Below are positions 3,265 to 6,837 of a stretch of 8,953 nt of DNA, piece after piece; the first letter of the stretch is position 1; the number at the start of each line of letters is the position of its first letter. The translations under genes were made by a program, and so were the position numbers. A model generated the notes under the pieces. It was not told the DNA's origin. It did no database searches and worked only from the letters and a program-made list of their open reading frames with translations. Source of the stretch: a virus (lineage: Duplodnaviria; Heunggongvirae; Uroviricota; Caudoviricetes); the IMG/VR virus record IMGVR_UViG_2778261447_000007, positions 1 to 8,953 of that record. One strand, written 5' to 3'.

Positions 3265-3690
3265 TCAATGCACAGCCACAGCATTTCCGGCCGGGCCACC
3301 ACGGTTGATCTGGTTGAAGCCAGCTATTGCCACCGCGACAAAATCATCAGCGTCTCTCACCAGTCGTTCCCGCATCTCCACCAGCTCCCGAAAATAAGCT
3401 GAACTGTGGCTGCGCATTCTGGCCACCAGCAAAGGTGGCATTGCCTTTTCGATCGCTGGTAACAACGCCTGAATTTTTTCAACTGCATCAGGGGTGTCTT
3501 TCTCTACCCAGCGGAAAATTTTCTGGGTATTACGCGCCAGGGCTTCAGGGTGGCTGTCGTCGTACAGTTCCGGGAACGTCATACCCAGTTCGAAATACGC
3601 TTTGGTAATTTTCGCAGCCGGTACTTTTTCGCCGTCCGGATGCGCCCAGGCATTCATCGCCATGCGGATGTGCTCATGTTTGATTTTCAT
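3265..3690 (-). CDS. ydaT: YdaT-like protein (141 aa; cII-analogue position in Rac-like prophages)
   Basis: ATG at 3690 overlaps the stop of the upstream Cro-like gene (ATGA). Position and size fit the second gene of the Rac ydaS-ydaT operon; N-terminus 'MKIKHEHI...' recalled as YdaT-like. Not verified by alignment. Confidence 0.65.
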   Translation of the reverse strand: MKIKHEHIRMAMNAWAHPDGEKVPAAKITKAYFELGMTFPELYDDSHPEALARNTQKIFRWVEKDTPDAVEKIQALLPAIEKAMPPLLVARMRSHSSAYFRELVEMRERLVRDADDFVAVAIAGFNQINRGGPAGNAVAVH

Positions 3691-4483: not shown

Positions 4484-4882
4484 ATGGGTGTACTCGAAAT
4501 TAGTGCTCTTAGAATTAGGAAGCTTTTGTTGGTAACAGGCTGGAGCCAGGCAGAACTTGCGCGCAGAATTGGCATTACTCAACAATCCGTTCAAAGATGG
4601 GTTTGTGGTATCTCAAGCCCTACAGCAGCTAATCTAGATAAACTATCTGAAGCAACAGGATATCCTCAGTATTGGTTCTTCTTACCGTTAAATGAAGAAA
4701 AAAATGACAGAATACAAGATATAATAAAAATAACTCCTAGGCAAAAGGAGCTACTTCAAACATTTGAGGCATTTCCAGAGGAAGATCAAGAGCAAATGCT
4801 TCAGGAGATGAAAGACAAAAAAGAGTTAATGGATCGCACAATTGAAAGATGGCTCGCTGCCCGGAAAGGGCATCGGGCATAA
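4484..4882 (+). CDS. paaR: PaaR-like HTH transcriptional regulator of a three-component ParE toxin-antitoxin system (paralogue of the upstream repressor)
   Basis: ATG at 4484 preferred over the TTG at 4409, which would overlap the upstream gene by 41 nt. XRE-type HTH 'WSQAELARRIGITQQSVQRW'. C-terminus 'ITPRQKELLQTFEAFPEEDQEQ...ERWLA' aligns with 'LTPNQLELLQIFSAFPDNEQQE...ARWLA' of the 4078..4449 product. Directly upstream of the antitoxin and toxin genes. Confidence 0.6.
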   Translation: MGVLEISALRIRKLLLVTGWSQAELARRIGITQQSVQRWVCGISSPTAANLDKLSEATGYPQYWFFLPLNEEKNDRIQDIIKITPRQKELLQTFEAFPEEDQEQMLQEMKDKKELMDRTIERWLAARKGHRA

Positions 4883-4911
4883 TGACCACCATACACAGAC
4901 GGAGGTGTGCC

Positions 4912-5103
4912 ATGAATACGGCCCTTTCACCAATGGTTTCTGAGTTTGAAACTATTGAACAAGAAAACAGTTACAACGAATGGCTGCGAGCCAAAGTAGC
5001 TGCAAGCCTTGCAGATCCGCGCCCAGCAATTCCCCATGACGAAGTTGAGCGCAGAATGGCAGAACGCTTTGCTAAAATACGCAAGGAACGGAGTGAACAG
5101 TAA
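4912..5103 (+). CDS. paaA: PaaA-like antitoxin (63 aa) partnered with ParE
   Basis: ATG at 4912 with GGAGG Shine-Dalgarno 6 nt upstream; TAA stop abuts the parE ATG. 'MNTALSPMVSEFETIEQENSYNEWLRAKVA...' matches the PaaA2 antitoxin of E. coli O157 paaR2-paaA2-parE2 as recalled. Confidence 0.7.
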   Translation: MNTALSPMVSEFETIEQENSYNEWLRAKVAASLADPRPAIPHDEVERRMAERFAKIRKERSEQ

Positions 5104-5388
5104 ATGTTACCTGTGTTATGGCTTGAAAGCGCAGATACCGACCTGGATGATATAACTAGTTACATTGCTCGTTTCGACATAGATGCGGCAGAACGCTTAT
5201 GGCAGCGATTAAGGGGGTGTGTGCTGCCATTATCCGAACATCCGTATTTATACCCCCCAAGCGACAGAGTGCCAGGCTTACGTGAGATTGTGGCTCACCC
5301 CAATTATATAATTCTGTACCGCGTGACAACCTCAAGTATTGAAATAGTAAACGTAGTCCATACCCGCCGACAGTTCCCTGTAACATAA
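5104..5388 (+). CDS. parE: ParE/RelE-superfamily toxin (ParE-like, 94 aa)
   Basis: Immediately follows the antitoxin stop. Size and sequence character ('LWLESADTDLDDITSYIARFD...IVAHPNYIILYRV') typical of ParE toxins. Confidence 0.8.
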   Translation: MLPVLWLESADTDLDDITSYIARFDIDAAERLWQRLRGCVLPLSEHPYLYPPSDRVPGLREIVAHPNYIILYRVTTSSIEIVNVVHTRRQFPVT

Positions 5389-5897: not shown

Positions 5898-6248
5898 TAG
5901 CTAACCAACGAAGCTAAGGTTGGTAATTAAGGAGTTCTCCACGGGTAAGGTGGAGTACGTGCGCCGGACACGGGTGAGCATCCGGCACTGACAGTTTACT
6001 GAAAGGATATTTCCCTGAAAAGTCAGACCATAACGCGAAAGCGCACGGCGAGGTAGCTGGTTCATAGATAGTCTGTCGTTAAATTTTCGTCGACCGTGCG
6101 CTTCCGGTTGTGGCACTCCGCGAAATGGCGCGGCGTAATCATGGCGGGGTACCCTTCCCCTTGAGGACACCGGGTTGTCAGGCTGACCATGCGCCTGAGT
6201 GACAACCCCGCTGCAACGCCCTCTGTTATCAATTTTCTGGTGACGTTT

Positions 6249-6291
6249 GGCGGTATCAGTTTTACTCCGTGACTGCTCTGCCGCCCTTTTT
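6249..6291 (+). terminator. Possible intrinsic terminator (GGCGG...CCGCC stem then T5), weak
   Basis: GGCGG 6249-6253 pairs with CCGCC 6281-6285, followed by C and T5 (6287-6291). Loop is long (27 nt, with an internal CAGT/ACTG stem), so non-canonical. Confidence 0.3.
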
Positions 6292-6295
6292 AAAG

Positions 6296-6443
6296 TGAAT
6301 TTTGTGATGTGGTGAATGCGGCTCAGCGCACGCGGAACAGTTAAAACCAAAAACAGTGTTATGGGTGGATTCTCTGTATCCGGCGTTAATTGTTAACTGG
6401 TTAACGTCACCTGGAGGCACCAGGCACCGCATCACAAAATTCA
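6296..6443. repeat. 17-bp imperfect inverted repeat pair (16/17) flanking a ~114-bp segment that contains tandem GTTAAC palindromes
   Basis: Left arm TGAATTTTGTGATGTGG (6296-6312); right arm CCGCATCACAAAATTCA (6427-6443) is its reverse complement with one mismatch. Interior has GTTAACTGGTTAAC (about 6393-6406) and CCTGG-aggca-CCAGG. Confidence 0.6.
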
Positions 6444-6460
6444 TTGTTTAGGACGCGATA

Positions 6461-6643
6461 ATGGAAACGTTATTACCAAACGTCAATACGTCTGAAGGTT
6501 GTTTTGAAATTGGTGTCAGAATCAGTAACCCTGTATTTACTGAAGATGCCATTAATAAGAGAAAACACGAACGGGAGCTATTAAATCAAATATGCATTGT
6601 TTCAATGCTGGCCCGTTTACGCCTGATGCAAAAAGGACGCTGA
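6461..6643 (+). CDS. Hypothetical small protein (60 aa)
   Basis: ATG at 6461, 17 nt after the right inverted-repeat arm, with AGGA upstream. Stop is 2 nt before the next ORF start. No family recognised. Confidence 0.4.
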   Translation: METLLPNVNTSEGCFEIGVRISNPVFTEDAINKRKHERELLNQICIVSMLARLRLMQKGR

Positions 6644-6645
6644 CA

Positions 6646-6837
6646 ATGAATACAGCATTTGCACTCGTTCTGACAGTTTTTCTTAATACAGGCGAACCAG
6701 TCGATCTTGTTATTGGTATACATGACTCAATGAAAGAATGCATGGCTGCCGCAGCGGAACAGAAAATTCCCGGCAACTGTTATCCGGTTGATAAAGTTAT
6801 TCGCATGGACAATAACGAAATCCCGGCTGGTCTTTAA
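6646..6837 (+). CDS. Small protein (63 aa) with hydrophobic N-terminus and conserved Cys; possibly DUF1482/YebW-like
   Basis: ATG at 6646 (M19 of the 6592..6837 ORF) with AAGGA Shine-Dalgarno. 'MNTAFALVLTVFLNTGEPVDLVIG...C...CYP' resembles YebW-type small prophage proteins as recalled. Uncertain. Confidence 0.45.
   Translation: MNTAFALVLTVFLNTGEPVDLVIGIHDSMKECMAAAAEQKIPGNCYPVDKVIRMDNNEIPAGL

Follow-up and report, generated by a model that had tools for sequence, protein, structure and literature searches.

The inverted repeat upstream of dicB in the window (the whole stretch of viral DNA analysed here, 8,953 bp) is the closing helix of a conserved folded RNA of about 150 nt, encoded on the plus strand. 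With high confidence, this module is structured as RNA on the plus strand and is homologous to STnc100; it is more than a bare repeat but belongs to an RNA family already known. We conclude that it represents a divergent, unannotated subfamily of the STnc100/PasD superfamily, set apart by its position, by having no promoter or terminator of its own and by the length of its helix. The best explanation, to which we assign a probability of roughly 0.6, is a portable RNA leader or spacer module of which the helix may be a site of double-strand-specific processing. The arrest of E. coli cell division by the prophage loci dicF-dicB and kilR has been studied for a long time, and a covariation-supported domain of ~150 nt in front of dicB and kilR is missing from the K-12 MG1655 RefSeq annotation and from the thresholded hits of Rfam.

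An Rfam search located the DicF sRNA (RF00039) at 6235-6286 with a score of 76.7 bits (gathering score 48), matching K-12 dicF at 1649382-1649434, and its terminator therefore ends three bases before the left arm of the repeat. Based on the presence of DicF, dicB and ydfD, the window was identified as the early-left operon of a Qin-like lambdoid prophage. The 461-bp dicF-dicB segment was covered for at least 80% in 3,838 of 5,426 complete E. coli genomes, with some match in 4,643. No promoter-like site was found upstream of the module and no terminator-like site on the plus strand before dicB. A PaaA2/ParE toxin-antitoxin pair (4849-5388, plus strand; Pfam E 2e-20 and 2.5e-16) belongs to the same operon and lies upstream of DicF, and a YdaT-like gene (3265-3690, minus strand) is located on the strand opposite to the DicF operon. 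The DicB protein encoded at 6461-6643 has 60 aa and the C-terminus ...LMQKGR, compared with 62 aa and ...LMPKGCAQ in K-12, and its N-terminus reads METLL and not MKTLL.

Table. Features of the dicF-dicB region, with positions in the window
Feature	Position	Strand	Basis
DicF sRNA with intrinsic terminator and U-tract	6234..6291	+	Rfam RF00039; K-12 dicF alignment
Whole STnc100-like module	6289..6455	+	Covariance model R1 match
Closing helix, 5' strand (left arm of the earlier note, extended)	6294..6314	+	Pair probability ~0.99; covariation
Hairpin 1, GCGGC-loop-GC.CGC	6318..6333	+	Fold; RNAalifold; sequence near-invariant
Hairpin 2, base CGGA/UCCG of 3-4 bp with hypervariable insert	6334..6381	+	Base covaries
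Hairpin 3, 10-bp stem and 7-nt loop GUUAACU	6382..6408	+	Fold; RNAalifold
Hairpin 4, CCUGG-AGGCA-CCAGG (CCTGG/CCAGG palindrome of the earlier note)	6410..6424	+	Fold; RNAalifold
Closing helix, 3' strand (right arm of the earlier note, extended)	6425..6445	+	Fold; pair probability; covariation
dicB Shine-Dalgarno AGGA	6451..6454	+	5 nt past the helix, unpaired with it
dicB, 60 aa, downstream cistron	6461..6643	+	Pfam DicB, E 1.5e-37; RefSeq homologous loci
ydfD/DUF1482, after dicB	6646..6837	+	Pfam DUF1482, E 4.8e-23

The repeat had been described in an earlier note as two 17-nt arms (6296-6312 and 6427-6443, the left one reading TGAATTTTGTGATGTGG) about 114 bp apart, enclosing GTTAAC and CCTGG/CCAGG palindromes and ending 17 nt before the ATG at 6461. 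All of these positions proved correct: the 17-nt arms are separated by 114 nt, GTTAAC occurs at 6392-6397 and 6400-6405, CCTGG/CCAGG at 6410-6414 and 6420-6424, and the ORF starting at 6461 is dicB. A repeat search lengthened the arms to 19 nt (6296-6314 and 6425-6443; 18 of 19 positions complementary), and RNA folding gave a closing helix of 21 bp, 6294-6314 with 6425-6445, in which the lone arm 'mismatch' is a U-G wobble on the plus strand. No other pair of 19-nt inverted arms with one mismatch or none and lying within 200 nt exists in the window, and such a pair appeared in none of 200 dinucleotide-preserving shuffles (analytic expectation ~4e-4). The search for further copies of the arms, proposed in the same note, yielded none elsewhere in the window, immunity region included, at up to three mismatches. 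A 16-nt inverted repeat (6592-6607 and 6728-6743, 88% complementary, 120 nt apart) was also observed, spanning the 3' end of dicB and ydfD.

Some resemblances to DicF were observed as well. The left arm (AATTTTGTGATG) resembles the 5' end of DicF (AATTTTCTGGTG), with 6298-6309 corresponding to 6231-6242, and the right arm is consequently complementary to the DicF seed region at 11 of 12 positions (6430-6444 against 6228-6242); this complementarity is not kept in the Rac/KilS context. The DicF 5' region at 6241-6250 (TGACGTTTGG) is perfectly complementary over ten bases to dicB codons 6-9 (6476-6485), and this pairing is included in the minimum free energy structure of the DicF-to-dicB transcript. 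DicF could thus pair with the dicB mRNA, but the match may be a coincidence, since ~0.3 such matches are expected by chance per 800 nt.

Folding of positions 6290-6475 placed the closing helix around four hairpins (−68.3 kcal/mol, z-score −5.6), which gives a modelled five-way RNA junction, and the closing helix formed with a probability of ~0.99 in partition-function folds of three sequence contexts. Hairpin 1 is preceded by the invariant junction GGUGAAU; its helix (helix 2) is 98.8% paired and is uninformative on covariation because it shows little variation. The insert of hairpin 2 is hypervariable in length and sequence, with indels and unrelated sequences on a conserved base, the third pair of which is AU, CG or GC across copies. 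Hairpin 3 accounts for the GTTAAC segment of the earlier note, GTTAACTGGTTAAC, as its loop and 3' strand, and shows compensatory changes at 6-7 of its nine modelled pairs. Hairpin 4 adjoins the closing helix without a linker, its middle pair covaries from U-A to G-C, and its motif CACCnGGAGGCACCnGGCACC is shared with Rfam STnc100. The loops and junctions (GGUGAAU, AGGCA) are invariant and the stems vary. The interior of the module is more conserved than the arms, a point overlooked in the earlier note, as was the presence of DicF directly upstream.

For the comparison between copies, a MAFFT alignment of 27 representatives was analysed with RNAalifold and used to build covariance model R1. The closing helix (inner ten pairs), hairpins 1, 3 and 4 and the base of hairpin 2 were all found by RNAalifold, with compensatory change at ten pairs of the predicted structure. 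With R1, the window scored 177.7 bits on the plus strand versus 30.1 on the minus strand. In 68 distinct model-aligned sequences, 97.9% of the cells were paired and 18 pairs had changed on both sides; none of 500 shuffles reached any of five measures, and pairing was only 32-42% when the partners were slid by 1-3 columns. Compensatory change was found at 13 of the 21 closing-helix pairs in 50 distinct sequences from seven enterobacterial genera, with a covariation of 0.294 versus 0.122 after shuffling and at most 0.05 in slid controls. The pairs with double changes amount to 18-24 over the 68- and 50-sequence alignments, counts which are biased toward the structure by the fit to R1 and with which RNAalifold on the MAFFT alignment agrees. 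When the copies from K-12 Rac and P7 were each folded alone, the same plan resulted.

The long-range RNA pairing suggested in the earlier note is thus strongly supported by covariation, and the arms were seen to covary when homologous loci were compared, as had been recommended. Within the closing helix, G·U cells outnumber A·C cells by 113 to 20, so that pairing is better on the plus strand (96.9% versus 90.3%). A minus-strand ORF of 60 aa (6262-6444) and a plus-strand ORF of 26 aa were considered as coding sequences and rejected, since neither has a Pfam match or is conserved; across copies, the overlapping ORFs range from 7 to more than 50 codons (7-56 aa) or have lost the start codon. The compensatory changes, the tolerance of G·U and the lack of a conserved ORF together indicate a plus-strand RNA structure and not a coding or DNA-level feature.

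The relation to STnc100 became visible in a permissive Rfam scan of positions 6270-6470, in which STnc100 (RF02076) matched with 36.3 bits and an E-value of 8.8e-7 (201-nt search), below the gathering score of 47 bits, so that no match is reported at threshold. The match is full-length, with model positions 1-206 corresponding to window 6288-6468, and other Rfam families gave chance-level matches only in this region. The closing helix with four hairpins, the GGUGAAU junction and the CACCnGGAGGCACCnGGCACC block on the 3' side are all present. The 3' hairpin or terminator of a free-standing STnc100 gene is not, and the 3' hairpin region of the model aligns poorly. Detection is reciprocal, with R1 finding canonical STnc100 copies that pass the gathering threshold at 35-90 bits. 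At this threshold, canonical STnc100 was called in other viral loci, often as 2-5 tandem copies beside tRNA genes; the copies of the module in P7, D6, POCJ13, a Klebsiella phage, ST64B and SfV received no STnc100 call. STnc100 has been described as a prophage RNA family that is multi-copy and Northern-positive in EHEC, overlapping the Hfq-bound EcOnc27 downstream of stx2 and related to PasD (PMC5331693, PMC12370729, PMC12711010, bioRxiv 10.64898/2026.05.13.724894). The dicF-dicB spacer is not mentioned in these four reports or in a study of dicBF regulation (PMC10448788), and no literature on a dicB leader or dicF-dicB spacer was found.

Megablast matches limited to window 6281-6445 were obtained in Rac-type prophages, where the module is located ~20 nt upstream of kilR. 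E. coli K-12 carries two copies, both unannotated, in the order dicF-module-dicB in Qin and kilS-module-kilR in Rac. KilS is a Northern-validated sRNA (PMC8175672) and ends at a terminator immediately 5' of the Rac module. KilS (b4833; locus L252, K-12 Rac, 406-503) was seen to share the terminator hairpin of DicF in the same place before the module, and a KilS-like hairpin with terminator follows the module in SfV and ST64B (L001/L002 ~2430-2500; L129/L130 ~2140-2220). Neither KilS nor the KilS-like hairpins were called as DicF by Rfam. In Shigella phage POCJ13 the module precedes kil, in P7 and D6 it lies before tciA (TerB) within the tRNA/ban operon under C1 control, and in SfV and ST64B it has the KilS-like hairpin on its 3' side. 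P1-like phages were found to contain up to three STnc100-like copies among the tRNA genes and tciA/tciB of this C1-controlled ban operon (D6, L126: 378-498, 1982-2147 and 3179-3293; P7, L125: 1982-2142; also L140, L148 and L190).

With a pattern scan, 120 loci with 71 distinct variants were found in viral contigs, and a scan of one genome per species found the module in Escherichia, Shigella, Citrobacter, Klebsiella, Raoultella, Enterobacter and Pseudescherichia. The genes 3' of the module encode diverse small proteins, including DicB, KilR, TerB and several without family. The module sits 10-40 nt upstream of such small accessory genes (dicB, kilR/kil, tciA, ORFans), and its copies occupy only the corresponding slot in the early operons of phages and are not dispersed. 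It is a recombinationally shuffled unit and not a transposon. In four degenerate prophages, L004 (2457-2591), L034, L044 and L056, only hairpins 3 and 4 and the right arm are left; all four break at the boundary between hairpins 2 and 3, before TATCCGRCGTTAATTG, beside unrelated DNA, and dicB is still intact after the truncated modules. The hypervariable hairpin 2 may be a recombination hot spot. E. coli-type modules were also observed in Aeromonas phage AP1 (MT713136.1, 249972-250130; 98% identical) and in an Actinobacillus phage (PP818812.1; 87% identical), and metagenome bins assigned to Veillonella, Mycobacteriales, Nanosynbacter, Collinsella and 'Proteobacteria bacterium' (L265) hold copies (L265, L272, L273, L277 and L278). 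The copies from unrelated hosts are probably due to contamination or to mis-binned enterobacterial prophage DNA.

In the proposed mechanism, the module, a compact domain that folds independently, is transcribed on the plus strand as part of the early-left operon of the prophage, between the DicF terminator and the ribosome binding site of dicB. In read-through or antiterminated transcripts, the duplex of ~21 bp would serve as a site for double-strand-specific processing, most likely by RNase III. Cleavage would detach the dicB-ydfD mRNA from the upstream RNA with DicF, provide this mRNA with a short, defined 5' end just before the ribosome binding site and free the core of ~125-150 nt as a discrete RNA. 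Since the arms would be paired together, they would be kept from pairing with the ribosome binding site region, which would not be hidden.

The length of the helix was compared between Escherichia, Citrobacter, Klebsiella, Raoultella and Pseudescherichia. In the lambdoid early-operon copies of every genus it measures 15-21 bp, mostly 19-21, and the sequences are unrelated, with arms such as CAGGCUUUAAGGUGCGGUG in Citrobacter and CAGGCUUUGCAAUGCGGUG in Klebsiella and Raoultella. Duplex length is thus kept in the lambdoid copies and sequence is not, which makes RNase III processing the most likely mechanism; selection for a given length of duplex suggests that the reader is specific for double strands. 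About 22 bp of double-stranded RNA are accommodated by RNase III (PMC6212723), and the 21 bp of the helix lie within the range of ~20-22 bp, about two helical turns, looked for in such a substrate. In the P1-like and SfV/ST64B copies the helix has only 8-12 bp, and RNase III processing can therefore not be the function of the whole family.

In a screen that compared coverage in an rnc mutant with that in wild type, the dicF-dicB spacer is represented by position 1649470, for which 26 mutant reads and 0/0 reads in two wild-type replicates are given; these are low counts, in a table with many similar entries and one site kept per 400 bp (PMC5371410, Table S1). This position corresponds to window 6322 (offset 1,643,148), inside the module, and was attributed by the authors to the known DicF site; their Rac entry, 1418510, lies upstream of KilS and outside the module. 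Because this hint is weak, cleavage by RNase III at the closing helix is regarded as possible but somewhat doubtful. The modules without left arm that still precede an intact dicB (L004, L034, L044 and L056) also count against the processing model. The repeat was considered as the published dicBF RNase III site and rejected. The 190-nt DicF precursor owes its 5' end to the known cut (Faubladier 1990, Ragunathan 2023), which is located ~190 nt before the 3' end of DicF, near window 6100. This is ~220 nt further upstream, and the cut should lie in the 3' arm of a separate, stable plus-strand hairpin of ~25 bp at 6028-6114 (−37.4 kcal/mol, z-score −4.35).

Instead of being a processing site in the first place, the module might act mainly in trans, as an Hfq-associated sRNA like STnc100/EcOnc27 and PasD that is set free from the transcript of the operon, with a lineage-specific seed in hairpin 2 or some other exposed segment and the helix defining and stabilising the ends. 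Membership of the STnc100 family and the conserved scaffold around a hypervariable hairpin 2 are in line with this. Canonical STnc100 is abundant, Northern-detectable and Hfq-bound, and the PasD variants have distinct target sets (PMC5331693, PMC12711010, bioRxiv 10.64898/2026.05.13.724894). However, the module has neither promoter nor terminator of its own, starting 3 nt after the DicF terminator and ending at the dicB ribosome binding site, and the RIL-seq tables list DicF and KilS but have no entry for a separate dicF-dicB spacer RNA, the operon being repressed under those conditions. A main role in trans was considered unlikely.

Quite unlikely is a reading in which the module, as a conserved folded leader, serves the kill genes of prophages as a dedicated RNA gate. 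A cellular factor would recognise its long duplex and its invariant junction and loops, and the gate would in this way decide when DicB, KilR or Kil are produced from read-through transcripts. The reader could be RNase III, the activity of which changes with stress, or another protein or ligand, and hairpin 2 could give lineage-specific targeting, or the excised core could act as a second regulator. If this were true, Qin and Rac would each encode an sRNA (DicF or KilS), a structured RNA gate and a division inhibitor.

A tRNA-like or protein- or ligand-binding RNA, serving as a 'punctuation' signal in processing by RNase P or RNase E or as a sensor that gates the downstream kill genes, appears improbable. 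Here the helix would be an acceptor-like stem stacked on hairpin 4. The overall plan of a closing helix and four arms, with hairpin 4 adjoining the helix, would suit this idea, as would the family members found between the tRNA genes of P1-like phages and in tandem next to tRNAs, and the invariance of GGUGAAU and AGGCA among varying stems. Against it, ARAGORN predicted no genes, by which a tRNA or tmRNA identity was rejected, the loop sizes do not fit a tRNA, and no Rfam tRNA or riboswitch matched positions 6270-6470 at E≤10.

Control of dicB at the level of translation was put forward in the earlier note, in the form of a pairing that masks the downstream start. As a mask or switch, the helix would control the access of ribosomes at 6461 by forming and melting. 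Toxic small proteins are often controlled by leader RNA, and the helix ends only 5 nt before the Shine-Dalgarno sequence. Nevertheless, both this sequence and the AUG lie outside the helix, and the predicted accessibility of the Shine-Dalgarno sequence drops from 0.47 in the wild type to 0.26 or 0.00 when either arm is complemented, returning to 0.45 when pairing is restored. The spacer between helix and start codon and the downstream gene also vary between contexts, and the modules lacking a left arm still precede dicB. The masking proposal is very unlikely to hold.

Least plausible of all, and extremely unlikely, is a role of the arms at the DNA level, as MITE-like terminal inverted repeats, a recombination site or paired DNA operators: the module does occur in several gene contexts and the right homology boundary coincides with the end of the right arm, but homology on the left extends beyond the arm into the terminator, the arms change in sequence between lineages with complementarity kept and with a strand-specific tolerance of G-U and not of A-C, and they do not recur in the window. 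From the suggestion in the earlier note that the arms are the ends of an inserted element, portability in front of different genes was retained; the occurrence only at the equivalent early-operon position, arms that covary as RNA helices do and the lack of a target-site duplication, on which that note was right and which extends to all nine contexts compared, speak against insertion. A MITE or small transposable element was rejected on the same grounds, without dispersed copies. The proposed looped operator pair was likewise abandoned.

As a portable leader or spacer, the module offers a defined element on which post-transcriptional control and the processing of DicF and dicB mRNA can be tested. 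It widens the range of STnc100/PasD from late-operon, virulence-linked loci to early operons and P1-like phages, and the R1 model and its alignment could improve annotation.

Compared with STnc100 (the EcOnc27/sRNA103 region in EHEC) and PasD, the module is likewise prophage-borne and restricted to Enterobacteriaceae, with a helix around four hairpins, GGUGAAU and CACCnGGAGGCACCnGGCACC, and mutual detection by covariance models. It differs in its location, as STnc100 is a late-region RNA, with Q, tRNAs and stx nearby, whereas the module forms the early-left operon leader of dicB and kilR. Unlike STnc100, it has no 3' terminator hairpin or promoter of its own, the closing helix has 15-21 bp versus 8+3 bp in the Rfam STnc100 consensus, and the sequences of hairpins 1 and 3 are different.

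Intercistronic RNase III signals are known from phage operons, such as the T7 early mRNA sites and the lambda N-leader, and comparable duplexes form the processing stalks of rRNA. By analogy, the module may resemble these in having a duplex of ~20 bp, built from the two flanks of a structured segment in a long polycistronic phage transcript, directly upstream of the ribosome binding site of a cistron. In contrast, cleavage is putative here, a conserved multi-hairpin domain is enclosed and not a simple loop, and relatives with a short helix exist. The known dicBF RNase III site shares the operon, the proposed enzyme and a long hairpin with the module, but is located near window 6100 and not in the repeat at 6294-6445.

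The closest neighbours of the module are DicF and KilS, which are found directly 5' of it in Qin and Rac, with the KilS-like hairpin 3' of it in SfV and ST64B, and which likewise belong to the 5' region of a kil-type mRNA. DicF and KilS are short Hfq sRNAs that end at an intrinsic terminator, whereas the module is a larger, separate domain beyond this terminator and, unlike them, is present only in read-through RNA.
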